Shown: one piece after another, positions 1,772-35,839 of the stretch
How the letters are laid out: the number at the start of each line of letters is the position of its first letter
Numbering within the stretch: the stretch's first letter is position 1
Origin: a virus
Lineage: Duplodnaviria > Heunggongvirae > Uroviricota > Caudoviricetes
Length of the DNA: 41,468 nt
Direction: 5' to 3' (one strand)
IMG/VR virus record: IMGVR_UViG_2541047699_000015
Program-made: the position numbers and the translations under genes
The notes under the pieces: generated by a model
What the model saw: only the letters and a program-made list of their open reading frames with translations
What the model was told of the DNA's origin: nothing
Databases searched by the model: none

Positions 1772-2397
1772 ATAGCCAGCACCTTACTGGCAGTGACGTA
1801 CCGCGCGCGCCGGTCGTCGATGCCGTTCCGGCCACCATTGATAATCAGAGTTACACGTGCAATATCGCCGGTATACTTCATGCATCCTTTGCTGGCAAAG
1901 AACCACGCCGCGCTACGAGCCGCGTATTCGTCCTGCGCCAGCAGTTCAGGACTCTCCAGCAGGTCAACCTTAAGACCGTTTCCACAGTCACGATAGTTAT
2001 TCAAACCGGTAATCTGGATAAGTCCGCGACCACGGTAATTCCAGCCATCACCAGAGGCATTGTTACCCATGCGTTTGCTGTACACCAGATTTGCGATCGC
2101 GCGCTGGCGCTCGAGTGGCAATGGTGGCTCACCAGCACGGCGGCCCAGTGCGTTAGCCTGTCCCTGGGTGAGACGCCCAGCCCGAACGAAGTTAGCCAGT
2201 CCGGTGACGCTGTAGTTGAAATTTTCCTGCAACCGGTTGAAGCCACCAGACTCATGCCCGACCTGAGCAATAAACATTGCCTGATCTTCGGGTTTGCTGA
2301 TACCAAACTCTTTCATCGCAGAAGTTATATGCGAGAACCAGCGTGCGGCCAGCGCCTCGCTAATACCAGCAGCTCGCTGGAATTGTTTAATCTCCAT
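1768..2397 (-). CDS. Endolysin, glycoside hydrolase family 19 (lysozyme/chitinase-like)
   Basis: Motifs GHESGGF and YRGRGLIQITG typical of GH19 phage endolysins; start set at ATG 2397 (MEIKQ) with SD GAGGT 7 nt upstream, not the 286-aa track ORF. Confidence 0.8.
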   Translation of the reverse strand: MEIKQFQRAAGISEALAARWFSHITSAMKEFGISKPEDQAMFIAQVGHESGGFNRLQENFNYSVTGLANFVRAGRLTQGQANALGRRAGEPPLPLERQRAIANLVYSKRMGNNASGDGWNYRGRGLIQITGLNNYRDCGNGLKVDLLESPELLAQDEYAARSAAWFFASKGCMKYTGDIARVTLIINGGRNGIDDRRARYVTASKVLAI

Positions 2398-2695
2398 GTT
2401 TAGACCTCGATATTTTGAAAATATGAACAACGTTACCGCGTGTTTTAATAACCGCGGCAAGCATGACAGCGTTGATAATGACCTCAGATAAATCCACAGC
2501 CATTGGCGTGCGTAACCAGATTGCATAGACGACACGAACAGGAATACTTGCCGCAGCAACAATAAGGAAATAAGCAAGCCACCCTCCCCATCTTCGATGT
2601 TGAGAGCCGTTACGCCGGAATGTGACAACGCGAATTGCTATGCCAGTACAAATAACTGCATTGGTGATAAGCAAAAAAAACTCATGCGTTACCAT
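2387..2695 (-). CDS. Holin/antiholin-like small membrane protein
   Basis: 102 aa with 2-3 hydrophobic helices, directly upstream of and overlapping endolysin start; start overlaps stop of preceding membrane protein. Confidence 0.55.
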   Translation of the reverse strand: MVTHEFFLLITNAVICTGIAIRVVTFRRNGSQHRRWGGWLAYFLIVAAASIPVRVVYAIWLRTPMAVDLSEVIINAVMLAAVIKTRGNVVHIFKISRSKHGD

Positions 2696-3086
2696 CGTCT
2701 TTTCTCCCCGGAATTAACTCGCGTGGATTATCGGAACGGTGATAGAGCCAGATGCCAATACGCACGGCGACAATTGCTGACACGAATGCGCCTGCAGAGA
2801 AAACAATCCCTTTTTCAAAAGAGTCCTGCGTGATGGTAGGGATCAGGCTGGCTATGCCGATAAGAATTGATGCTGCTGGTTTGTAAAAGAGAAGGCCGCA
2901 AAGAAAGCTGAGCATCGACAGGAGCACCCGGCGACGGATGGGGTACTCTACTGCAGAGGTAACAAAAATTACCGCCCCAGCCAAAGCCCCTAAAGCAACC
3001 TCCGGAGGGACACCTGCAATAACCGCAGCAAGAGAACTAACACTAAGCCACTGATTTGAAGTTTCATTGGTTAGTTGGAATGACAT
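2682..3086 (-). CDS. Holin-like membrane protein (3 predicted TM helices)
   Basis: 134 aa, three hydrophobic segments, charged C-terminus; first gene of lysis cassette. Confidence 0.55.
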   Translation of the reverse strand: MSFQLTNETSNQWLSVSSLAAVIAGVPPEVALGALAGAVIFVTSAVEYPIRRRVLLSMLSFLCGLLFYKPAASILIGIASLIPTITQDSFEKGIVFSAGAFVSAIVAVRIGIWLYHRSDNPRELIPGRKDDGNA

Positions 3087-3158
3087 AACGAAACCCGTTT
3101 ATTTGCAAACACCCTGCTTCAGGAAAAGTATACCGCGCAACAACACACCATTTACGGT

Positions 3159-5621
3159 TCAATTCCCTGTTAATTGCAAAACTTGCTCTTCCAGCTTTTT
3201 AACCCTGCGTCTCATCATCGCAGATTCCAGAATCAGAGCCTCTTCATAACGGATACCGTAACATTCACCAGCCTCGACGGCTTCGCGTACCAGAACCTTT
3301 GTCTGTATAAGTGGGTAAACTCCTGCAGAATGCTCTTCTTCCGTCACATCCCTGTATTCTGCCGGGGTCTCATTCCACTTGTCATAACAGATAAATGCCA
3401 GTCGTGACACATCTATGCCTTCATTCTGAAATACACTGATAACATGCTGCGCAACTGCACCAAAGTGCCATCTTGCTCCGTCTTTACCTTTCACTTCGAT
3501 CCTGTCAAGGTACTGGTATGAAACCCATTCCACTCTTTCCCATGCGTCCAGTATTTTCTCATCAATAACCTCTGGAGCAGTCTTGAAACGCGCATCGGAC
3601 AGCACCGTAAACGCTGACTGGGTAAATCCCCCCGACCATGCACGACCAGCCAACCCAAGAGAATAAGTATTCGTTGTCGATGGTGTCATGGCTGAATCAG
3701 AAAACTGTATATATTCTGAATTTCCAGTAGATATTCGAATATTTCCATTTATTAGCGACATAGTGCCTTTAGTATTATCACTATTGAATAATTTCAATTG
3801 CGAACTTATACCGCCTCCCACAGCCAGAGATACATCGCCTTCAGCAAGCATTCTGAATTTATCTGCAGAAACAAGCGTCTGGTTAGCAAGGTTAAAATAT
3901 TTAACCCACCATTCAAAACGCCCTGACATAGTCCCAACGTACTGACCAAGCGCAGGGACGTGAACAACATTGCTATTTGTAGTGCCGTCTATACTGGAAA
4001 TACCAGTCACCGCTGATGCAGAACTCAGAATATTATTTCTGTCACCCGGATGTTTAATTTCAACAAAGTTCCTGATACACCCTTCCTCGAAGGTAACCAC
4101 GCCGGAAGAACTATACATGGGGAATATTGACGCATAATTACTGCGTGCAGCATCTAAGAAACGAATGGTTGTAGATGTCTGCAGATCTCCTGATTCATTT
4201 TTCCCATCACACCCAGTCATTAGAATATTACTGGCAATATTATTATTTCCCTGAACGGTGACTCCGTGCGCCTGCTTTGCGTCCGATTCAGAGTAATCAA
4301 CCAGCACATTCGAAATCAGGTTACCAGTCCCCTTGCCAACAACTACTGCGGCGTATTTTGGGTTGTTAGCCATTACACTGCTAATGATATTATTCGTTGG
4401 GGCAGTTTCCGTCTCAGTTCCATTGTAAACAACGTGCTGACACTCTTCACCAATAACATTGCTGACAATGTTATATTTTGCTGCTGTTTTAAGTTCCACT
4501 GCACCAAACTGAGGATAATTTCTGGCTATCACACCATCAATTAGCGTATTTTGCGATGAATCAAAAAGCACACAACCTGCTTTTTTATTATTTGCGAACC
4601 CTAAATACTCTCCTCTTATATCTCTAACAATGTAACCTGACGGAATACCATTATTCGGATAAGCGATCAAGCTAAATCCTGTTCCTCGCGTATTTGTAAA
4701 TCTGATATTTTTAACCGATACATCATGGCCACCTGAAAATGACACCTGGTGTCCCTGCACACTATCATCTGATTTATTTCCCATAATTGTTAGCGTACTA
4801 AGCATGCCACCATCGGGCATGTTAAAAACCAGATGATTACCATCTCTGTCATACTGTTTTATCGTTCCCCCACCTGTTCCGTACAAGCCACAACGTGAAA
4901 GAGAAACTAAAGATGTATTGAATACCCCTTCCGGAACAAAAACACTGCTAAACGAATGTAATGATTTTGTAAAAGCATCCTTGTTATCATTTAAGATTCC
5001 ATTTTGAGCTCCAAAATCCTTAATGCTGACACCATCACGCATCTTATCCTGGAACGTTCTGTATACCGCTCCAGAACCATACTGAATAAACCAACCAAAA
5101 CCACCAATAACTCCGGCGATTGCAGCATCGACATAATTACGCATTGAGCGATTATTTACAGCGTCCTGCTCAAGTGATGGATCGGCAAGGTTAGATATTC
5201 TGTTTTGCTTTGCATCGTAATATTTTGCAAGCAAAGATGGTTTCATCAATGCACGTCTGAACCACCCAAAACATCGCTGGATCAGCATCGTCAGGTAGTC
5301 AAATGCATCCTCATGAACTTCGGGGAAAAATTTTCCCTGATTGCGAAGATCAGTCTCCTGCACCACATCAAGCACACGCTCTATCGTGATTCGCCAGCCA
5401 GCAGCAAGCGGCGACGGAAGAACCACTGCACCGCCACTATAAGTTCCCGCCCCTGTTACCGTATAACCAGCATCCAGCACTAGTTTTGTAACGTTACCGT
5501 TAAGGTCAGACACCTGAACAACCAGGTCGGATTTTTTGAAAATACGGAAGGTATACGGAAATGATGTCGTAACGCCGTTACCTGTGTATTCGTTGTGGTC
5601 AACTTCGGTTGAGACCGTCAT
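3159..5621 (-). CDS. Tailspike: T7 gp17-like N-terminal anchor, beta-helix (pectate-lyase-like) depolymerase body, C-terminal S74-type autocleaving chaperone
   Basis: N-terminus GNGVTTSFPYTFRIFKKSDLVVQV resembles T7 tail fibre N-terminal domain; Gly/Asn/Ser/Thr-rich repetitive body; C-terminal SDARFK ... WHFG motif of intramolecular chaperone; SD GGAG 8 nt before ATG 5621. Confidence 0.75.
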   Translation of the reverse strand: MTVSTEVDHNEYTGNGVTTSFPYTFRIFKKSDLVVQVSDLNGNVTKLVLDAGYTVTGAGTYSGGAVVLPSPLAAGWRITIERVLDVVQETDLRNQGKFFPEVHEDAFDYLTMLIQRCFGWFRRALMKPSLLAKYYDAKQNRISNLADPSLEQDAVNNRSMRNYVDAAIAGVIGGFGWFIQYGSGAVYRTFQDKMRDGVSIKDFGAQNGILNDNKDAFTKSLHSFSSVFVPEGVFNTSLVSLSRCGLYGTGGGTIKQYDRDGNHLVFNMPDGGMLSTLTIMGNKSDDSVQGHQVSFSGGHDVSVKNIRFTNTRGTGFSLIAYPNNGIPSGYIVRDIRGEYLGFANNKKAGCVLFDSSQNTLIDGVIARNYPQFGAVELKTAAKYNIVSNVIGEECQHVVYNGTETETAPTNNIISSVMANNPKYAAVVVGKGTGNLISNVLVDYSESDAKQAHGVTVQGNNNIASNILMTGCDGKNESGDLQTSTTIRFLDAARSNYASIFPMYSSSGVVTFEEGCIRNFVEIKHPGDRNNILSSASAVTGISSIDGTTNSNVVHVPALGQYVGTMSGRFEWWVKYFNLANQTLVSADKFRMLAEGDVSLAVGGGISSQLKLFNSDNTKGTMSLINGNIRISTGNSEYIQFSDSAMTPSTTNTYSLGLAGRAWSGGFTQSAFTVLSDARFKTAPEVIDEKILDAWERVEWVSYQYLDRIEVKGKDGARWHFGAVAQHVISVFQNEGIDVSRLAFICYDKWNETPAEYRDVTEEEHSAGVYPLIQTKVLVREAVEAGECYGIRYEEALILESAMMRRRVKKLEEQVLQLTGN

Positions 5622-5724
5622 GTTAAATCTCCAGATAGTCGCAGCACCCGTTGCGCCGCATATCTGGTTATTCTATTACCCAAAAAACCATATATGGATA
5701 GAAAGACTGTGAATATGAATAGAT

Positions 5725-5741
5725 ATTACCTTTCAGGTAAT
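5725..5741. promoter_or_regulatory. 17-bp operator ATTACCTTTCAGGTAAT
   Basis: Perfect ATTACC-N5-GGTAAT palindrome in the divergent region between tailspike and plus-strand island. Confidence 0.6.
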
Positions 5742-5777
5742 TTGCAAAACGTGCTGGATAGCAAACAAATTATTTGC

Positions 5778-5797
5778 TACTGTATAAATATACAGTT
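5778..5797. promoter_or_regulatory. LexA (SOS) box TACTGTATAAATATACAGTT
   Basis: CTGT-N8-ACAG with AT-rich spacer, 18/20 match to consensus TACTGTATATATATACAGTA as remembered; 20 nt upstream of SD/start of gene 5818. Confidence 0.75.
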
Positions 5798-5817
5798 ATT
5801 GCATGGAGAAGATTAAG

Positions 5818-6075
5818 ATGCAGCAGTATCACTATCCACTGGAAGAGGGATTTACCGAAAGGATTCACACGCCGGGAGGCGTCAGGTCACTGGTGGAGGG
5901 ATCGCACTTGATGAAATTACTCCGGGATCTCGATAAGGATGGATTTAATGTCGATGGCCCACTTGCCGAACTGACTGCACTGATTAACTACGTCACCAGC
6001 TCACAGATGTCTATGCAGGATCTGCAAACACATCTCGACTATTGTGCCGAACAATTACGAAAACAAACCAGATAA
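5818..6075 (+). CDS. Small LexA-box-preceded protein, paralog of C-terminal domain of ORF6N protein; candidate antirepressor
   Basis: SD GGAGAA 6 nt before ATG 5818 (track start 5803 lacks SD); product aligns with C-terminus of 6889-7608 product (IH-P-GV...LM-LL...DG-V-G-AELT...QTH-Y). Confidence 0.6.
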   Translation: MQQYHYPLEEGFTERIHTPGGVRSLVEGSHLMKLLRDLDKDGFNVDGPLAELTALINYVTSSQMSMQDLQTHLDYCAEQLRKQTR

Positions 6076-6078
6076 GGT

Positions 6079-6122
6079 TTGCAATTACCAAATGGAGTGC
6101 TTATATTTACCTTTGCGGTAAA
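6079..6122 (+). promoter_or_regulatory. Sigma70-like promoter (TTGCAA-N17-TATATT) with overlapping operator TTTACCTTTGCGGTAAA
   Basis: -35 at 6079-6084, -10 at 6102-6107, operator 6106-6122 begins 22 nt after the -35 hexamer, same spacing as at 7653 and 35931. Confidence 0.55.
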
Positions 6123-6155
6123 TTTACATCGCACTCCTCTTGTGCCATAGTAATC

Positions 6156-6194
6156 GGGCACTGGCAAAATCCAGTGCCGGGATTGGCGTCCCGG
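6156..6194 (+). ncRNA. Structured leader: two mutually exclusive hairpins
   Basis: Hairpin A GGCACTGG/CCAGTGCC (6157-6178) and hairpin B CCGGGA/TCCCGG (6177-6194) share the CCGG segment, so only one can form. Confidence 0.35.
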
Positions 6195-6212
6195 ATTACT
6201 AGTAGGCGCATA

Positions 6213-6234
6213 CCACGCCAGACGTGGTTTTTTT
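6213..6234 (+). terminator. Rho-independent terminator/attenuator in leader
   Basis: Hairpin CCACG-CCAGA-CGTGG followed by T7 run. Confidence 0.6.
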
Positions 6235-6389
6235 ATGCGTATAGCACAGTCATATCCGAATTATGGTGGGCTGGGCAGGGGCACCGAAAGGTGCGCCGGT
6301 ACCTACTAGGCCGGTACGCCAACCTTGTCCAGTTCACCACCAGCAATTGGCGTTGCGGTGGTGGGTAACTTACTAGTAGAGGTATCGCT

Positions 6390-6896
6390 ATGCCAGGCCA
6401 AAAAATCTCAAACGACGATCTGTATTGGTTAATTTCTAATTCTCCACTCCTTCTTATGCTAAGGCAAGAAAGTGCACCACTGGTCAGTGAATTGATTAGC
6501 TGTAGAAATAGAATGTGGGATGAAGGGGCAGATTTAGATACCAATTTGTTTGATCATCTTATGCAACTAGCAGTCGATAACAAGGCAAAACTACGCTCTG
6601 AATACAACGCTTATCCAGAAATAGCAAAATACCTTAACGCTGAAATACTTGGTGGACCAGGTCAACCAGACCTAAAAACAAAAGATGGTTACCCTGTTGA
6701 GGTGAAGGTAGATACTTTTTCTCCTTCAGCATTAAAACAATTATTAAGGTATATGGATGCTTCTGGCGCAGATTTTGGTTTTGCTTGTGCAAAAACTCTT
6801 TCTGTAAAACTCCCTGAAAACATAAAGTTCATCCAGTTAGATTATAAAGATAATTGCTATTTCGTCGTGAAAGATGGAGGCAATGAAAATGCGTAA
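6390..6896 (+). CDS. Hypothetical protein (accessory island)
   Basis: SD AGAGG 7 nt before ATG 6390; 168 aa; no family recognised; stop overlaps next start (ATGCGTAA). Confidence 0.6.
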   Translation: MPGQKISNDDLYWLISNSPLLLMLRQESAPLVSELISCRNRMWDEGADLDTNLFDHLMQLAVDNKAKLRSEYNAYPEIAKYLNAEILGGPGQPDLKTKDGYPVEVKVDTFSPSALKQLLRYMDASGADFGFACAKTLSVKLPENIKFIQLDYKDNCYFVVKDGGNENA

Positions 6897-7608
6897 TATA
6901 GCTATTGATAAGTTGCCGATAACAACTCATTGCAACATCCCTGTAATGACTACAGAAATGCTTGCTGATTTGTATGACACAGAACCCAAACTGATTCGTC
7001 AAAACTATCAACGAAATGCAGATCGATTCATTGAGGGAAAACATTGTTTCAAGCTGATAGGCGAAGAATTACGAGCATTTAAGAACGAGTCCTCTCAAAG
7101 AGGTTTGCTTAATATTGCACCAAAAGTAAGTCATCTTTTCTTATGGACCGCTCGCGGTGCAGCACGACATGCGAAAATTCTTGAGACTGAAAAAGCGTGG
7201 GAGGTCTTCGAAAAACTGGAAGATTGCTACTTCGACAGAAAACCCGCAAATGTCAGCGGAGATGTTCGTCTCTCAGGTGGAGCTGATTTATCAAAGGCCA
7301 CTCAGGTAATTGAAAAATTCATGCCCGCCATTATGGAGGCGATCAAGCTGGAAGACAAAAAAGAATACAGTGCCCCACTGAAGCCCGGCTACCGCAGTCT
7401 GATTCATTCTCCGTCTGGTGTTCTCGGCCTGACGGAGAACTCATTGCTGATGAATCTGCTGAATCAGTTGCAGGACGACGGGCATGATGTATCGGGCGCG
7501 GCGGCGGAGCTGACCACCATGTTCTGCTACATCGTCGGTGTGAGCAAATGCCTGCGTGATATCCAGACCCACGCGGAGTACATCAACGACAAAGCAGGAT
7601 TCTTCTGA
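6889..7608 (+). CDS. ORF6N-domain protein (phage antirepressor-like) with C-terminal domain shared with 5818-6075
   Basis: N-terminal segment VMTTEMLADLYDTEPKLIRQNYQRNADRF...LWTARGAARHAKIL resembles ORF6N domain of antirepressor-type proteins; start at ATG 6889 with SD GGAGG 8 nt upstream. Confidence 0.6.
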   Translation: MRNIAIDKLPITTHCNIPVMTTEMLADLYDTEPKLIRQNYQRNADRFIEGKHCFKLIGEELRAFKNESSQRGLLNIAPKVSHLFLWTARGAARHAKILETEKAWEVFEKLEDCYFDRKPANVSGDVRLSGGADLSKATQVIEKFMPAIMEAIKLEDKKEYSAPLKPGYRSLIHSPSGVLGLTENSLLMNLLNQLQDDGHDVSGAAAELTTMFCYIVGVSKCLRDIQTHAEYINDKAGFF

Positions 7609-7652
7609 CGGGCGGCGGCACAGGGATGTGCCTTTAAATAATTCTGTACAGA

Positions 7653-7696
7653 TTGCAGACCGGGGGTGAATAGCGTACTATTACCTTAAAGGTAAA
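7653..7696 (+). promoter_or_regulatory. Promoter (TTGCAG-N17-TACTAT) with overlapping operator ATTACCTTAAAGGTAAA
   Basis: -35 at 7653-7658; operator 7680-7696 starts 22 nt after -35; precedes gene 7738. Confidence 0.5.
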
Positions 7697-7737
7697 CCTG
7701 TTTTTATTTTATACCTGTAACTTACCGGAGATTAAAG

Positions 7738-8064
7738 ATGACAAAACTTGGATTCGTGATGAGAGGTCCGGTAAGAAGCGGAACTCATGCAAAGCGTAGC
7801 AAGAGTCGTATTTTTACTGGTAAGGTTGTAGCACGTAAATCAGCTATTGGCTCGTTCAATAGTGAAAATGCGGCATTGCGCCATATTTTTATCAGCACAA
7901 AGCCAAGAGCATCCGCTGATGTGCATACAATGTCTATTCCTATCACAAAGAATATCAAGCGGATAAAAAAGCTCTCATCTGCAGAATCAAAAGAGATATC
8001 TTTCCGCCAGCTTAACTCATTAGAAACGCATATGAAGGAAGAGGAATTCGATGTTTTTGAGTGA
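7738..8064 (+). CDS. Basic small protein, possible antitoxin-like partner of downstream gene
   Basis: SD GGAG 7 nt before ATG; 108 aa, basic N-terminus, acidic C-terminus; C-terminal RQLNSLETH faintly resembles YefM/Phd NSLEE motif; 14-nt overlap with next gene. Confidence 0.5.
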   Translation: MTKLGFVMRGPVRSGTHAKRSKSRIFTGKVVARKSAIGSFNSENAALRHIFISTKPRASADVHTMSIPITKNIKRIKKLSSAESKEISFRQLNSLETHMKEEEFDVFE

Positions 8065-8563
8065 GTATAGCGGGAAGGTTATACCTACTGGTGAGTTTAA
8101 AACTGATGACTTTCTGATTTCGCTAAAAGATGCTTTTAAACAACACTGGCGTCATGGTCATCATCCTGATCTGGGAAAAGATACTCTTTTTGAAAGACCA
8201 GACGAAGTATTAGGCTTCCATCTCAGAAAGGTTCATGTCAATATTGGTGAATATGCATCATATTCATACTCATGTACTGAACAGTGTTGGGATGAGTGGT
8301 CATATGGATTGATTGATGAACAAGGAAATTACAGGCCAAAACCAACCAGTAACGCATATCTCATATATGCAGTCAATGAAATAAGAGATGCAGCCTTACT
8401 AGCTTATTGGGACCCGCCCGCACACACCAAAGCTAACGCAAAAGTTTGGATGGATTCCGTATTGAATTTCACAAAATTATTTCATGAACGAACGAATACA
8501 GCTCCACTTAGTAGAAATGTTTATCCGTGGGATTATTCGTACAAATCCAAAAAGCCTGCATAG
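8051..8563 (+). CDS. Candidate YafO-like toxin family protein (tentative)
   Basis: Segments DAFKQHWRHGHHPDLGKDTLFERPDE and FHLRKVHVNIGE resemble remembered E. coli YafO (DFISYKRDGVLPDTFGRDALYDD, ERVAHIHLANE); from memory only. Confidence 0.4.
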   Translation: MFLSEYSGKVIPTGEFKTDDFLISLKDAFKQHWRHGHHPDLGKDTLFERPDEVLGFHLRKVHVNIGEYASYSYSCTEQCWDEWSYGLIDEQGNYRPKPTSNAYLIYAVNEIRDAALLAYWDPPAHTKANAKVWMDSVLNFTKLFHERTNTAPLSRNVYPWDYSYKSKKPA

Positions 8564-8644
8564 TAGTTTTTTATGGACGAAACAAAAGTCAGTGCTACAC
8601 TCATTGACGCCACATTGAGGTGGCTTATAGATGGAAATTTCACA

Positions 8645-8806
8645 ATGAAAAAAGCATTTGCTGCACTGTTCGTTTTGTTGTCTCTGGTAGCTTCAACTCA
8701 GGCCTTTGCCGGTCGTTGTCAGCACGACAGCGACACTGCTGCTGACGGCTCCCGCTGCGGTGGGCGTTCTGCGGATTCCCGCCCGGGTGGCGGTGGCATT
8801 CGTTAA
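8645..8806 (+). CDS. Small secreted Cys-containing peptide
   Basis: Signal peptide MKKAFAALFVLLSLVASTQAFA then 31-aa Gly/Ser/Asp-rich mature part with two Cys; start at ATG 8645 rather than track start 8573. Confidence 0.45.
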   Translation: MKKAFAALFVLLSLVASTQAFAGRCQHDSDTAADGSRCGGRSADSRPGGGGIR

Positions 8807-8828
8807 AAACAAGGCCGCGAAAGCGGCC
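8805..8828 (-). terminator. Rho-independent terminator ending the virion operon
   Basis: Minus-strand hairpin GGCCGC-TTTC-GCGGCC followed by TTGTTTTT. Confidence 0.65.
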
Positions 8829-8829
8829 T

Positions 8830-8841
8830 GTGACATGTCAC
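8830..8841. repeat. Palindrome GTGACATGTCAC, copy 1
   Basis: Perfect 12-bp palindrome; contains stop codon of lipoprotein gene; immediately upstream of terminator in direction of transcription. Confidence 0.8.
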
Positions 8842-9218
8842 GCAACGCAATTATTACCGCGCCATGTAACATTTTTAATAATCTTATCAGCACCAAACTC
8901 AACGTAAACAGAGCAACTGAAATGGAGTGTATAACCGCCATCAGTTGTTGCGTATGTGTTTGAATATATAGTATTACCAATTAGATTAGACGTAGTATTA
9001 TACGTTGTGGTTTGTGGTACGTTATAACTACCAGAGCTTGAGTAAACATACACTCTGTTTCCATCTGGAGATGTAAGCTCTCCCTGAGGATACCCCCACT
9101 GCTGAACCATTGCGTCTATACTCTGCCCGCGCCACGTAAGCATATTTCTTTCAAACTGTGCAGCTGACTGGCATCCAACGAGAAGCATAAATCCAAAAAT
9201 CAAAAATACTTTTCTCAT
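8838..9218 (-). CDS. Lipoprotein at end of virion operon (possible superinfection-exclusion or virion lipoprotein)
   Basis: Start at ATG 9218 with SD AGGGG; signal peptide with lipobox LLVGC; Ser/Thr/Tyr/Asn-rich mature protein. Confidence 0.6.
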   Translation of the reverse strand: MRKVFLIFGFMLLVGCQSAAQFERNMLTWRGQSIDAMVQQWGYPQGELTSPDGNRVYVYSSSGSYNVPQTTTYNTTSNLIGNTIYSNTYATTDGGYTLHFSCSVYVEFGADKIIKNVTWRGNNCVA

Positions 9219-9303
9219 AATTACCCCTATCATGGAAAAACAGCACCAATCCACAAATTAACTAGTTATTTTATTATTCTTCCGAACAATACAATTCCGA
9301 ATA

Positions 9304-9437: not shown

Positions 9438-11912
9438 TTATTGCGGAGTGACATCCTGTGGTCGCCACCAGTATGTCTGGTTAAACTCTTTCTTCGAACG
9501 TTGCTCCATTTTACGCAAATAGCCTGGTGAAAAATACTCCTGCATCTGGTTAAAGATCATGTGATCGAGAGCCGCCTTCAAGTACCAGAGATTCGCACCA
9601 GGCATCAAACCTTTCCCCAGCTTCACCAGATCACCACCAGTCTGCTCACTCTTCCCTTCCACAGCATTTAACGGTATGCCCTGAGCAATCTTCACTACGT
9701 CATCAACCAGACCAGCTACCGGGCCAAGCATCGACGCCAGCGCGCCGCTTCCGTACCTAGTGTGATCTGACAATAAAAAGTCACCGTAAAGGCCAAGACC
9801 ACCACCTTTCAGTAGAGCACCAAGCCAGAATTTTGCGGCATCTTCTCCTGTCATCTCTCGAGGATTACGACCAGACGCAAGGTCGTTAAGTTGCTGCGAC
9901 AAAGCGCCAAGAATGGTCGTACTGGCAATAAACGTCGCAATATATGCCGCACGCCCACCAGCAGACGGCATACCCATAGCGCGTGACCAGTGACGCATAA
10001 CAACCGAGATAGGGAACGATTTAAACAGGAAAACACTTCTCGTTAATTCACCTTTCCATGTTCCACGCTGAATACCAGAACCGGTTATCAGTTGCTCACG
10101 TGCTCCCGGTGTAATAACAGCCATATCAACTTCTTCAGTTACGGCACCGAGCAGTTTACGCATTGCCTCAAATTTCACGCGTTCAGGCTCACCAAGATGT
10201 TTAACTGCTGAATCAGGGATACGCATAATGCTTTCCGGTGTCAGCATCGTATTATTACCGTTCCCCCAGTCCTCCTGTTTCGCCAGCTTCCATACGCTCC
10301 AGTCTGTGTCAGTAATCCCTTTGCTTTTCAGGATACGAAAATCAGAGTCATCGAGGCTACGAAGGTCTGGTGTCCGTGACACTACTTCTCCCAGGCTTCC
10401 CATCATGGTTACGCCATAGGCGCGCTTGTGCGCATCTGACCATGCTGTAAGCCCACTGGCACGCATTACCGCCGTTGCCGCCCAACGAGACACTGACGGC
10501 CCCATATTATCCATCGCCCAGCGGTTAACGCTGCCAAGTAGAGATTCCATCGCCAGACCAGCGCGGCGCGCCCGCGCAAGTTCTGTACGGTTCGTTGGGT
10601 CCATAGCTTCAAGCTGGTTGCGGAATAACTGGTTCATTGGAAGGTTGGTAACCTTCGCAGACAGATACATGGTTCCAAGATCAGAGAACGATGACAGCAA
10701 CGCGGATCCGAGTCTGCTGGCAACCAGCCAGTTGCGGATATTGTCAGACCATCGCGCGATGTGCGGATTCGCTACAGGCTGTGTCTTTCCGGAAATAAAG
10801 TTGTACAGATTCTCTGTGTTGTTCGCCAGCCGCTCGACTTTACCGGTTTTACTCGGGTTAGCTGTTGCCGTTTCTGCCTTCACCTGATCAAGAAGAGAGC
10901 GGAAAACATGATCGGGGTTTGGGCCATATGTTTCCACCAGTGCAATATCTTTACTGATACCTTCCAGGTGACAGACCATGATTTCCCATAGAGAGCGATC
11001 GCCATAAAGTTGCTGATATTGCAGATAGGAATCTGCATCTTTGAAATGTATCTGTCGTGATGCATTACCACGGTTAGCACGTGCGCCGGAAATTCGCATT
11101 CCGGTATCAGTAAGCTTATTCAGCCCACCAGTAGCGATCGTGTTATAAGCCTCTCCAAGAAATGAAGACAACTCTGCATCGTTCATCAGTTGTCCATCGG
11201 CTCGGATATAATATTTGCGATCCAGCTTACCTATAACATCGCTAACCCACTTATCCTTTGATACTGCCCCAACCTTTTCCATAGAATGATGTTGAGGGAT
11301 CCCCCAGTTTTCGAGATAGCCAATGTCCCCACCAGCATCATTAAACCGGCGGCGCAGCAGCTCTGTAACTTCTCTCCACGCCTTAGCACCGTTTCTTGCT
11401 TTAGCATTGCCAGTAGTTTGCCCCCGCATTTCATATACCAGGTCACGTACGCCCGCTTCATCTTCAAACAGACCAAAAAAGCGAGGATCAACTGCTTCGA
11501 ATGCCTCCTGCAATTGACTCAATGCATAATCACGGGTGGCTTTTGTTCTGGATTCAACAGAGAGGAAATTAGATTTACCGTCTGCATTAAAAGCTATAGT
11601 ACGGTTAAGAGCGCCAAGTTTCCCATCAGCCCCTTGATAGCTATTGATAAATTTATCCAATCTCTGACGCGCGGCTATAGTGAGAGCCACACGACGTTTC
11701 TTTAATGCCGCTTCTCGCTGTAATTCTTCAGATGCCAATTGTGCTGCTCGATATAGCCGCTCTGATTCGGAAAGTTGTCGCCACGACATAGGGTCATCAC
11801 GAGCAATGGAGCGCATATTTCGATAAATGCGGTCTTCAATGTTCTGTATTTCTCGCGCCGTTAACATGCGCTGCGCCGCCTGCTGAACCGCTTGTATACA
11901 TTCCTGTCTCAT
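9438..11912 (-). CDS. Internal virion (ejection) protein, T7 gp16 C-terminal-like
   Basis: 824 aa; segments FLFKSFPISVVMRHW and LASMLGPVAGLVDD resemble remembered T7 gp16 C-terminal region. Confidence 0.55.
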   Translation of the reverse strand: MRQECIQAVQQAAQRMLTAREIQNIEDRIYRNMRSIARDDPMSWRQLSESERLYRAAQLASEELQREAALKKRRVALTIAARQRLDKFINSYQGADGKLGALNRTIAFNADGKSNFLSVESRTKATRDYALSQLQEAFEAVDPRFFGLFEDEAGVRDLVYEMRGQTTGNAKARNGAKAWREVTELLRRRFNDAGGDIGYLENWGIPQHHSMEKVGAVSKDKWVSDVIGKLDRKYYIRADGQLMNDAELSSFLGEAYNTIATGGLNKLTDTGMRISGARANRGNASRQIHFKDADSYLQYQQLYGDRSLWEIMVCHLEGISKDIALVETYGPNPDHVFRSLLDQVKAETATANPSKTGKVERLANNTENLYNFISGKTQPVANPHIARWSDNIRNWLVASRLGSALLSSFSDLGTMYLSAKVTNLPMNQLFRNQLEAMDPTNRTELARARRAGLAMESLLGSVNRWAMDNMGPSVSRWAATAVMRASGLTAWSDAHKRAYGVTMMGSLGEVVSRTPDLRSLDDSDFRILKSKGITDTDWSVWKLAKQEDWGNGNNTMLTPESIMRIPDSAVKHLGEPERVKFEAMRKLLGAVTEEVDMAVITPGAREQLITGSGIQRGTWKGELTRSVFLFKSFPISVVMRHWSRAMGMPSAGGRAAYIATFIASTTILGALSQQLNDLASGRNPREMTGEDAAKFWLGALLKGGGLGLYGDFLLSDHTRYGSGALASMLGPVAGLVDDVVKIAQGIPLNAVEGKSEQTGGDLVKLGKGLMPGANLWYLKAALDHMIFNQMQEYFSPGYLRKMEQRSKKEFNQTYWWRPQDVTPQ

Positions 11913-25491: not shown

Positions 25492-25529
25492 TTGACATTT
25501 AACGCGCGAATTATTACCTTTCAGGTAAC
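25492..25529 (+). promoter_or_regulatory. Promoter (-35 TTGACA) with overlapping operator ATTACCTTTCAGGTAAC upstream of tRNA
   Basis: TTGACA at 25492-25497; operator 25513-25529 covers -10/+1 region. Confidence 0.5.
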
Positions 25530-25850: not shown

Positions 25851-25927
25851 GTGGCATTAGCTCAGTTGGACAGAGCAACCGCCTTCTAAGCGGTTGGTCG
25901 CAGGTTCGAATCCTGCATGCCACGCCA
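25851..25927 (+). tRNA. tRNA-Arg (anticodon UCU), phage-encoded argU-like
   Basis: Cloverleaf read by eye: acceptor stem GTGGCAT/ATGCCAC, D-arm GCTC...GAGC, anticodon stem ACCGC/GCGGT with loop CTTCTAA (anticodon TCT at 25885-25887), T-arm GCAGG-TTCGAAT-CCTGC, discriminator G, encoded CCA. Confidence 0.9.
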
Positions 25928-35254: not shown

Positions 35255-35839
35255 ATGAAAAGTATCCAGGACGTCCGCAGGCAAAATCTCAACGACTTGA
35301 TCGACCGTGAATTCAATGGTGTTCAGACGCGGATGGCAGAAAAACTTGGAACTCAGGCAAATCTGGTAAACCGCTGGGCTCTTGGCAAGAAGGTTATCGG
35401 CGACCAGGTTGCGCGAAAAATTGAAGCTGCCGCCAATAAACCCCGTAACTGGCTTGATATCGATCGCTCGCTTTCTCAGGAAGGTTTTCAGCCTGTCGGC
35501 CCAAGCGACATTGGTCAGCTGGCAGCTCACAACCTGGAACGCTGGATGAGTGAAAGCCGCGACCTTTCAACTCAGGGAAAACTTCACCGCGCATCCGGCG
35601 TCGCCCAGGTGACAATAAGCCGCCTGTTAAACAATGAGGTCAGCGTTTCCATTTCCACCCTGGAGAATGTTGCATCTGCATTCGGGCGTCACGGATATGA
35701 ACTACTGATTCATCCGCATGACCCTGCGACCATCAACTATGATCGCTCGCGCTACGCATTGTTACCCGAAACCGAGAAAGCAAAGATCGAAAGTTACATT
35801 GAATTTGTCATCAACCAGAACGAAAAAAACAAACAATAA
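35255..35839 (+). CDS. CI-like prophage repressor with two tandem HTH (XRE-type) domains, no peptidase domain
   Basis: HTH1 about residues 20-60 (QTRMAEKLGTQANLVNRW), HTH2 about 110-150 (LHRASGVAQVTISRLLNN); 194 aa; no LexA-like Ser/Lys autocleavage module. Confidence 0.65.
   Translation: MKSIQDVRRQNLNDLIDREFNGVQTRMAEKLGTQANLVNRWALGKKVIGDQVARKIEAAANKPRNWLDIDRSLSQEGFQPVGPSDIGQLAAHNLERWMSESRDLSTQGKLHRASGVAQVTISRLLNNEVSVSISTLENVASAFGRHGYELLIHPHDPATINYDRSRYALLPETEKAKIESYIEFVINQNEKNKQ

Follow-up and report, generated by a model that had tools for sequence, protein, structure and literature searches.

A putative layered induction switch with exchangeable cargo in an epsilon15/phiV10-like prophage of Escherichia coli

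In the viral genome record IMGVR_UViG_2541047699_000015, six plus-strand genes run antisense to the late genes; they are flanked on one side by the tail fibre gene (3159-5621) and on the other by virion genes (9438-11912), both flanks being minus-strand. The question raised by this locus is whether these genes form an island acquired for some accessory purpose or belong to the regulatory machinery of the phage itself. All coordinates given below are positions in the 41,468-nt stretch of DNA that was analyzed (the window); open reading frames (ORFs) were taken from a program-made list, and PGAP denotes the RefSeq annotation. A preliminary description of this DNA had proposed an inserted accessory island, the likely seat of an undescribed accessory or anti-phage function. 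The six genes were found at or near the positions that it gave, but their backbone proved to be an already described anti-immunity (induction) module of the phage's own. We estimate a probability of about 75% that the region serves the control of prophage induction, enlarged by an RNA module of the P1-immI/Gifsy-1-isrK type and loaded with exchangeable cargo. The finding is real and is largely accounted for by known systems. New are the combination of a LexA/Ant switch and a C4/IsrK lock in one podovirus, a divergent YafO cassette that is gated by a repressor operator and has an undescribed antitoxin type, and a nuclease-like gene that sits in the icd slot.

By its DNA matches, we assign the window to an epsilon15/phiV10-like prophage of E. 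coli, genus Uetakevirus. The phages phiV10, TL-2011b, vB_EcoP_ZX5 and phiv142-3 match the region and its flanks in pieces with 91-96% identity, and hundreds of E. coli chromosomes also match both at the DNA level. Sequence analysis gave direct access to homologies, RNA families, base pairing and its covariation, gene coupling, operator positions and genome distribution. For the LexA and operator motifs, counts across the whole window were compared with the chance expectation. Most genes of the region are now annotated as hypothetical, and the analysis clarifies their likely identities.

The first gene, ant (5818-6075, plus strand), was identified as the gene of a small antirepressor of 85 aa by its homology to ant of the Salmonella phage SPC32H and by a match to phrog_450. 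An ATG at 5803 would give 90 aa; the Shine-Dalgarno (SD) sequence GGAGA favours 5818, which is the PGAP start. The deduced protein is 89.2% identical, over 98% of the protein, to the SPC32H product annotated as 'ant: anti-repressor protein', which bears out the antirepressor-like gene of the preliminary description, and it shares 85.5% identity with gp19 of epsilon15. The gene was found in all Uetakeviruses, and in SPC32H and epsilon15 it is the sole gene between the tailspike and virion genes. The ant promoter is overlapped by a LexA (SOS) box, TACTGTATAAATATACAGTT, at 5778-5797 (core CTGT-N8-ACAG at 5780-5795); the window contains three perfect CTGT-N8-ACAG matches against 0.55 expected. This perfect box and a perfect palindrome at 5726 make up the divergent operator/LexA boundary (5725-5797) that had been placed there before.

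Both the LexA box and the upstream repressor palindrome are conserved in a promoter alignment of the window, SPC32H, SPC32N, epsilon15 and phiV10. SPC32N, a lytic variant, differs from SPC32H by two bases in the aligned promoter stretch, one of which is a C to A change that turns the ACAG half-site of the LexA box into AAAG. This comparison agrees with work of Kim and Ryu (J Virol, 2013), in which a LexA-box mutation is said to have made Ant constitutive, and in which Ant reportedly inactivates a repressor that is not itself cleaved. By homology to the SPC32H Ant, DNA damage would lift LexA from 5778-5797 and allow Ant to be made, and Ant would then bind and inactivate a non-cleavable repressor, Rep (35255-35839). 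The Ant-Rep-LexA switch of SPC32H and epsilon15 (GenBank KC911856, KC911857) belongs to the same genus and lies at the same locus between tailspike and virion genes, with the highly identical (89%) Ant, the same LexA box over the ant promoter and the same upstream palindrome. There, however, the locus holds ant only (260 bp), whereas the window has about 2.7 kb of extra DNA downstream, namely the IsrK/C4 RNAs, the gene of a 168-aa protein, a second antirepressor gene, a toxin-antitoxin cassette and a secreted peptide gene.

The candidate for Rep is a 194-aa HTH_3 protein whose sequence is the same (100% identity) as that of the ZX5 and phiV10 repressor; overexpression of the ZX5 repressor locks the phage in lysogeny (PMC9782041). 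Palindromes of the form TTACC-N5-GGTAA occur at 5726, 6107 and 7681, in agreement with the three operator-bearing promoters of the preliminary description. Sites with up to three mismatches number 16 in the window against 1.1 expected, and no shuffle equalled that count. Operator-like palindromes cluster on both sides of rep, and one cluster flanks a strong early promoter (TTGACA-17-CATAAT) beside it, where the palindrome begins right after the -10 hexamer. The putative Rep operator O1 (TTACCTTTCAGGTAA, 5726-5740) is an exact palindrome that precedes the ant start region by about 75 bp; SPC32H, epsilon15 and phiV10 share it, and its counterpart in the epsilon15 GenBank record is annotated as 'protein_bind: repressor, lysogeny'. 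The operator O2 (TTACCTTTGCGGTAA, 6107-6121) abuts the -35 hexamer of the IsrK promoter and is centred near -44, a position that is invariant in seven relatives. The effect of Rep at O2 may be repression or activation, the position being similar to that of lambda CI at OR2, from which CI activates PRM. A further operator, identical to O1, was noticed at 25514-25528, about 320 bp upstream of a tRNA-Arg gene (anticodon TCT) that lies inside the window at 25851-25927 on the plus strand.

The structured leader reported downstream of ant resolves into two RNAs, an IsrK small RNA (sRNA) and a C4 antisense RNA, both above their Rfam gathering thresholds. The IsrK/C4 promoter (TTTACA-17-tgCATAGT, 6123-6151, plus strand) has its predicted start at about 6158, which is position 1 of the isrK model. 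Its -35 and extended -10 elements, as well as O2, are conserved from E. coli to Serratia and in other loci. An alternative promoter-like site further upstream (TTGCAA-17-TATATT, 6079-6107) is not conserved in the Serratia relatives and was therefore not relied on. The IsrK-like sRNA (6158-6234, plus strand; Hfq-binding sRNA family RF01394, 68.1 bits against a gathering score of 50) ends in an intrinsic terminator at 6212-6234, formed by a hairpin (6212-6228) and a T-run. It contains the first set of C4 targets, b1 (6183-6189) and a1 (6199-6206), recognized by complementarity; the corresponding Rfam family, c4-a1b1 (RF03163), scores just under threshold at 6145-6197 (45.1 bits against 46.7). 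The C4 antisense RNA (6259-6344, plus strand; RF01695, clan CL00128) matches its model over the full length (1-87) with 76.7 bits against 45. Its exposed segments are the hairpin loop a' (6302-6309) and the single-stranded b' (6316-6322). The former is complementary to 6199-6206 and 6373-6379, and the latter to 6183-6189 and 6347-6353. The second set of targets, b2 (6347-6353) and a2 (6373-6379), lies at 6347-6384 on the plus strand and abuts the SD GAGG (6381-6384) of the gene of the 168-aa protein, which starts with ATG at 6390.

We compared the pairing segments across eight related copies of the module, using a cut-off of 6 nt for target matches. The a' loop takes seven different sequences in the eight copies (CCTACTAG, CCTTTTAG, CTACGCTGA, CCTGTGAT, TCCTTCGAC, CCTTTGTAG and CCACTTAG), and b' occurs in two forms (ACGCCAA and AGACCAA). 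Complementarity is perfect at a2 and at both b sites in all eight copies. At the upstream a1 site it is perfect for five of the seven loop types, and the remaining two showed no upstream match that reaches 6 nt. The downstream target abuts or overlaps the SD of whatever ORF comes next, again in all eight copies. This covariation is the strongest evidence for the predicted C4/IsrK lock. Both RNAs are present in every relative with the second antirepressor, and the Rfam models detected neither of them in SPC32H, which has ant only. The seven or more C4 loop specificities amount to a natural set of orthogonal RNA 'immunity types' that could govern cross-talk among co-resident prophages.

A third complementarity is also conserved in all eight copies. 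The segment GGTGGTGA (6357-6364 in the window) follows C4 at a distance of 13-22 nt and pairs with TCACCACC, the 3' strand of the long stem of that RNA. This pairing may form an alternative structure or act as a signal for processing, similar to structures A and B that were described for the isrK locus of Gifsy-1.

The proposed working of the lock follows known relatives. The immI locus of P1 and P7 links C4 RNA, Icd and Ant (PMC8201110), and in Gifsy-1 the antirepressor is coupled to an upstream ORF whose translation is activated by the short IsrK, and a processed downstream RNA, STnc1160, is complementary to IsrK (PMC4825925). In the window, the second promoter, with its -35 hexamer abutting the Rep operator, would make IsrK, and read-through would give C4 together with the mRNA for the 168-aa protein and a fusion of ORF6N and Ant-like domains. 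The C4 segments would pair with b2 and a2 at the SD and block translation of the 168-aa protein and, via an 8-nt gene overlap, of the second antirepressor too; the decoy copy in IsrK (b1, a1) could relieve this block. The second antirepressor would then be an RNA-gated amplifier or an immunity-specificity device, as in P1 and Gifsy-1. The steps of LexA repression of ant, inactivation of Rep by Ant, masking of the ribosome-binding site by C4, relief by IsrK and amplification by the second antirepressor are thus modelled on characterized homologues. The predicted switch is layered, in that a LexA-controlled small antirepressor of the SPC32H type would be joined to the antisense-RNA lock of P1 and Gifsy-1, which had been separate paradigms.

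The Gifsy-1 isrK-orf45-anrP locus of Salmonella (Hershko-Shalev et al. 2016, PMC4825925) shares with the window a terminated IsrK and read-through into an ORF that is translationally coupled to an antirepressor. It differs in that the upstream ORF has 45 aa instead of 168 aa, that Gifsy-1 is a lambdoid siphovirus, and that its locus has neither toxin-antitoxin cargo downstream nor a LexA-controlled ant upstream. With P1/P7 immI (c4-icd-ant1/2), the window shares a C4 RNA above the Rfam threshold, target pairs that flank this RNA, a downstream pair that masks the ribosome-binding site of the first ORF, a first ORF that overlaps the antirepressor gene, an operator-associated promoter, and loop variation that sets specificity types. 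Unlike P1, the window belongs to a podovirus with an extra LexA-controlled antirepressor upstream, has the unrelated 168-aa protein at the icd position, combines an ORF6N N-terminus with an SPC32H-Ant-like C-terminus where P1 has its Ant, and possesses an additional IsrK-type terminated decoy sRNA. The immI region of P22 (mnt-arc-ant and the sar RNA), an antirepressor operon beside the tailspike of a temperate podovirus under antisense-RNA control, is a positional and functional analogue. A P22-type immI was rejected for the window, which has no sar, arc or mnt; its RNA is of the C4 type and the proteins are unrelated. In TL-2011b, on the other hand, the two different immI systems stand side by side: C4/IsrK on one strand, and on the other an Arc-like repressor of the P22 type together with Ant and a sar RNA (6494-7678 and 7440-7507 of its locus; sar at 44.8 bits in Rfam against 43).

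The second antirepressor gene (6889-7608, plus strand) encodes an ORF6N domain followed by an Ant-like C-terminal domain. The ORF6N assignment, made earlier from the letters alone, was verified in Pfam (E = 1e-18). The PGAP start at 6889 gives an 8-nt overlap, ATGCGTAA, with the gene of the 168-aa protein; the start at 6874 that had been chosen previously is also open. An SD sequence (GGAGG) precedes the start from within the upstream gene, which points to translational coupling. The protein matches phrog_1760 ('anti-repressor') over its full length (E = 1.5e-97), and in the C-terminal ~80 residues (about 160-239) it shares 42% identity with the small Ant (E = 7e-16). Because of this Ant-like domain we predict that the ORF6N protein is a second antirepressor, and the shared domain would be its Rep-binding part. 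In relatives, what is apparently the same C-terminal module is joined to Bro-N, Rha, AntA/B or P22-Ant-like N-termini, and additional places found by tblastn confirmed this sharing. The Bro-N version from ZX5, when overexpressed, lowers lysogeny (PMC9782041). Overall, the prophage would command two antirepressors, one under LexA control and the other under the control of RNA, perhaps with Rep in addition.

The ORF between the C4 targets and the ORF6N gene (6390-6896, plus strand) codes for a 168-aa protein of phrog_18738 (function unknown); as noted previously, it overlaps the ORF6N gene, by the 8 nt given above. Its place right after the C4 targets is that of P1 icd and Gifsy-1 orf45, and it is always directly upstream of the ORF6N antirepressor (Salmonella, Enterobacter), with or without the toxin-antitoxin pair. 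Homologues from five genera are 71-85% identical over the full length, and the residues D94, E104-x-K106 and Q117-xxx-Y121 are invariant in nine homologues. The sole hit of the PDB profile search was the Cas4-family exonuclease 4r5q, whose D, ExK and QxxxY motifs align on those residues. By these motifs, the protein is a candidate minimal RecB/Cas4-like PD-(D/E)xK nuclease. The order of secondary-structure elements in an AlphaFold2 model, itself poor (helix, three strands, helix and strand round D94, E104 and K106), fits the PD-(D/E)xK core. A Pfam search with the family, up to E = 10, returned nothing useful. Cas4 proper was rejected, as only three Cys are present (C38, C133 and C156) and these are not in the four-Cys Fe-S pattern. 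We lean slightly towards a small RecB/Cas4-like nuclease, which would probably be made together with the second antirepressor.

Downstream of the antirepressor gene lies an overlapping pair of genes. The second of them (8051-8563, plus strand) encodes a 170-aa protein that PGAP names 'YafO family toxin', and family profiles support the YafO-like character suspected in the preliminary description. The Pfam family YafO_toxin (PF13957) matches 10 of 12 close homologues and 28 of the 43 members of a deeper set. A profile of 42 family members, from which YafO was left out, scores the K-12 YafO (MG1655 record) at 38.7 bits over residues 4-129 of 132, and four residues (F29, G42, H62 and H125) are invariant across the toxin family including YafO. 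The family is small: 1.84 billion representative proteins yielded only 58 clusters at 50% identity. By these profiles, we assign the protein to a small, divergent and longer branch of the YafO family. A PDB sequence search with the toxin profile gave spurious lectin hits only. YafO belongs to the RelE/ParE superfamily and cleaves mRNA in a translation-dependent manner (PMC2814082, PMC11980606), and the 170-aa protein would accordingly be an mRNA interferase of this superfamily.

The first gene of the pair (7738-8064, plus strand) encodes a candidate antitoxin of 108 aa with a basic N-terminus and an acidic/aromatic tail (...KEEEFDVFE). A partner gene of this kind, with 100-112 codons, is always found directly ahead of the toxin gene and overlaps it by 14 nt in E. 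coli, Serratia, Citrobacter, Salmonella and metagenomic loci, and it evolves faster (33-51% identity, compared with 66-82% for the toxin). The C-terminus of the partner (...SLEDRMKEEEFDxFE) aligns end to end with that of YafN (...YLNDMTDDDFNDFKE) over the last ~28 residues. YafN is presumably an antitoxin of the Phd/YefM family. The YefM-like C-terminal motif formerly ascribed to the 108-aa protein holds in so far as the tail resembles that of the antitoxin YafN, but there was no YefM/Phd domain hit, and membership of that family was rejected for this reason. Two further YafO-like variants at the locus have unrelated partners, of 59 aa in TL-2011b (tail ...NYEFVCVAE) and of 175 aa in E. coli strain 2/0 (tail ...QELYDDAE). 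A C-terminal acidic/aromatic stretch that closes with Glu is common to YafN and the three partners (59, 108 and 175 aa), a likeness suggestive of a shared neutralizing tail on modular antitoxins. In strain 2/0, the 175-aa partner and its 168-aa toxin form a second YafO pair, encoded by the minus strand in the interval that separates ant from the IsrK promoter (1999-3022 of its locus), hence this prophage has two YafO-like cassettes.

Compared with yafN-yafO of K-12 (dinB operon), the window pair has a toxin of the YafO family with the four shared invariant residues, the same order of antitoxin and then toxin, and a similar partner tail (PMC2814082). Unlike its K-12 counterpart, the window toxin is about 40 aa longer, has a Trp/Cys-rich insert and is, taken alone, below the Pfam cut-off; the partner differs from YafN by lacking a recognizable antitoxin domain. 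Moreover, the pair has a phage-repressor operator instead of a dedicated antitoxin operator, and it is a swappable prophage cassette. In MG1655, yafNO lies directly downstream of dinB, in an operon that we take to be LexA-regulated, and both loci are tied directly or indirectly to SOS.

The promoter of the pair, P3 (TTGCAG-17-TACTAT, 7651-7695, plus strand), carries the operator O3 (TTACCTTAAAGGTAA, 7681-7695) just past its -10 hexamer, over the predicted transcription start. This is the geometry of the early promoter next to rep, and in all relatives and genera a distance of 54-57 nt separates the operator from the start codon of the antitoxin-like gene downstream. TL-2011b shares the window sequence through O3 and then diverges into a different cassette; P3 and its operator belong to the junction. 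From the position of O3, it is straightforward to expect that Rep represses P3. Since this phage-repressor operator overlaps the start, the cassette should be silent in a stable lysogen, and it would be on only when Rep is absent or inactivated, i.e. at induction or in a fresh infection. The two genes are read as a type II toxin-antitoxin system, in which the tail of the partner would neutralize the toxin. Candidate roles for the pair include a host translation brake, post-segregational or 'dead-man' killing, and exclusion.

Several observations weigh against parts of this interpretation. The 170-aa protein itself reaches only 19.7 bits (E = 9.5e-4) against PF13957, below the gathering score of 25, and no island protein had a hit in NCBIfam, though PGAP names the toxin. 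A direct hhalign comparison with the K-12 YafO was weak (probability 3%), and Smith-Waterman comparison was marginal, with 31, 5 and 2 of 500 shuffles reaching the score in three variants; both direct comparisons are superseded by the deeper profile. No antitoxin or DNA-binding domain was found for the 108-aa partner in Pfam (to E = 10), NCBIfam or PADLOC, and the likeness of its tail to that of YafN is not significant (hhalign E = 0.09; 61 of 500 shuffles reach the score). The P3 -10 element is weak in the Serratia copies, and read-through from the IsrK promoter could express the pair in lysogens despite O3. The Cas4 match of the 168-aa protein is marginal (E = 0.041), the Cas4 Fe-S cysteine pattern is absent, and a Foldseek search of its model against PDB was uninformative (best E = 0.73). 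The AlphaFold2 models are poor, with pLDDT (predicted local distance difference test) scores of 46.2 for the 168-aa protein (nine-sequence alignment) and 49.5 for the 170-aa protein (12-sequence alignment). Finally, toxicity, its neutralization, Rep binding and C4 action are all inferred from sequence, and the same holds for protein-protein interactions, the direction of the Rep effect at each promoter and nuclease activity. Of these, repression of P3 by Rep (with the pair on at induction or infection), tail-mediated neutralization and the nuclease role of the 168-aa protein are deduced from the anatomy of the locus.

By analyzing the distribution of the region among 5,426 complete E. coli genomes, we classified its parts into core and cargo. 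The backbone of ant and the RNAs has a match in 532 genomes, of which 281 show at least 80% coverage. The toxin-antitoxin cassette is present in 69 genomes, all at least 99% identical, and the unit of the 168-aa gene and the ORF6N gene in 22; the whole island is covered to at least 80% in 2 genomes. On the strength of 532 against 69 and 22 genomes, the backbone is lineage core, and the two units are mobile cargo. The idea of accessory content thus stands for the two variable units but fails for the ant/RNA backbone, and these counts, together with an Ant that occurs in all Uetakeviruses and a leader that is C4/IsrK, argue against an inserted island as a whole. The podovirus lineage that carries the predicted layered switch is present in ~10% of complete E. 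coli genomes.

Other cargo occurs at the same site elsewhere, including a DUF2335 gene, the second YafO-like pair, ClbS with an insertion sequence (IS) element, and Rap1a-like genes. The site is a recombination hotspot, where junctions of promoter and operator allow swaps of cargo, among them three YafO-like cassettes and the nuclease-like gene. In E. coli TUM13064, a gene of the ClbS/DfsB family (colibactin self-protection-like) and an ISEc53 transposase gene lie between the tail fibre gene and ant (1792-3549 of its locus). In Citrobacter and metagenomic relatives, genes with the Rap1a domain (type VI secretion immunity-like) follow right after the YafO-like cassette on the minus strand (5846-6229 and 5873-6295 of their loci).

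The variety and patchiness of this cargo raise the possibility of an accessory anti-phage defence island, in which the YafO-like pair, and perhaps the 168-aa/ORF6N unit, would protect the lysogen by abortive infection. Both units have a patchy distribution and are nearly identical between strains (at least 99%), as mobile cargo tends to be; different cargo sits at this site elsewhere, and the RelE/ParE superfamily includes known defence toxins (PMC11980606). The only island hit in PADLOC-DB v2 was that of the ORF6N domain to PDC-S05 (E = 1.5e-8); PDC-S05, however, is an untested candidate, and the hit is at the level of this common domain. For the pair, the 168-aa protein and the peptide, PADLOC had no matching model, and the 170-aa protein is already named as a YafO toxin by PGAP. 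The backbone is the phage's own induction circuit, and the Rep operator over the start of the cassette should keep it off in the lysogen, where a defence gene must be on. We therefore consider defence quite improbable. The same operator geometry, that of an early promoter next to rep, would suit a different role, in which the YafO-like protein serves the phage as an effector of the lytic cycle that shuts off the host by cleaving mRNA and is timed or modulated by the 108-aa protein; both would be early genes once Rep is gone. This role would be in line with conservation of the cassette in Uetakevirus-like prophages of several genera, and the location of yafNO downstream of dinB would parallel SOS-timed expression if, as we assume, that operon is under LexA control. 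Yet the cassette is dispensable, being found in 69 genomes compared with 532 for the backbone and missing from most relatives, and a ribosome-dependent mRNase would cut phage messages too. The overlap of the two genes and the faster evolution of the upstream partner are the classic signature of a type II toxin-antitoxin system, and the host-shutoff role appears unlikely.

The 168-aa protein could instead be an Icd-like host-directed factor (e.g. a cell-division inhibitor) or a long leader ORF that opens the ribosome-binding site of the antirepressor, its motifs then being coincidental. The exact P1 icd/Gifsy-1 orf45 position, behind the C4 targets and overlapping the antirepressor start (PMC4825925, PMC8201110), is what such a factor or leader would have, and the protein has no Pfam family, a poor model and an empty fold search. 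Full-length conservation in five genera, however, implies selection on the protein and not on translation alone. In addition, the five invariant motif residues match the catalytic motifs of Cas4 4r5q in order and spacing, and the predicted order of secondary-structure elements fits the PD-(D/E)xK core. A role other than that of a nuclease is rather doubtful in our opinion.

Within the preferred reading of an induction module with cargo, it can tentatively be speculated that the parts form one scheme, though we would not count on it. The cassette, gated by the repressor and not autoregulated, would be a translation brake coupled to induction or infection, or a 'dead-man switch' that would punish destruction or loss of the phage genome by the cell after early expression; the modular antitoxins (59, 108 and 175 aa, and YafN) would have unrelated N-terminal bodies and share one acidic/aromatic C-terminal plug for YafO-type toxins; and a Cas4/RecB-like nuclease would be co-translated with the RNA-gated antirepressor. 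If this joint reading is true, the P1 'icd slot' is a general docking site for induction-timed effectors. If confirmed, a repressor-gated YafO module with a new antitoxin class would extend the wiring of toxin-antitoxin expression to the life-cycle decisions of the phage.

The last plus-strand gene of the region (8645-8806) encodes a secreted or membrane-associated peptide of 53 aa with two Cys in the mature part. It matches phrog_3117 and phrog_14503 ('membrane associated protein', moron category), and its signal-peptide-like N-terminus, MKKAFAALFVLLSLVASTQAFA, was read directly from the sequence. The small secreted two-Cys peptide of the preliminary description is therefore present, but the longer version with a start at 8573 is unlikely for a secreted peptide, and PGAP calls the 162-nt version. 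A possible promoter without an operator (TTGACG-16-TATAGA, 8604-8632) was seen by eye upstream of the peptide gene and is unlisted in the promoter scan; if real, the peptide alone could be expressed in the lysogen, as a classic moron.

The region is closed by a GC-rich hairpin, AGGCCGC-GAAA-GCGGCCT, at 8812-8829. Of the palindrome and terminator formerly placed at 8805-8841, the hairpin is present, but its T-run is on the minus strand, where it terminates the converging lipoprotein gene, and the plus strand has no U-tract. A perfect 12-bp palindrome, GTGACATGTCAC, follows right after the hairpin (8830-8841) and overlaps the stop of this minus-strand gene. The gene itself (8838-9254, minus strand) converges on the island and encodes a 138-aa protein of phrog_3716 (function unknown) with a lipoprotein signal, MRKVFLIFGFMLLVGC (lipobox). 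At this site, SPC32H and phiV10 have a 46-aa membrane protein only. The 138-aa lipoprotein could be a moron, e.g. a surface or exclusion lipoprotein.

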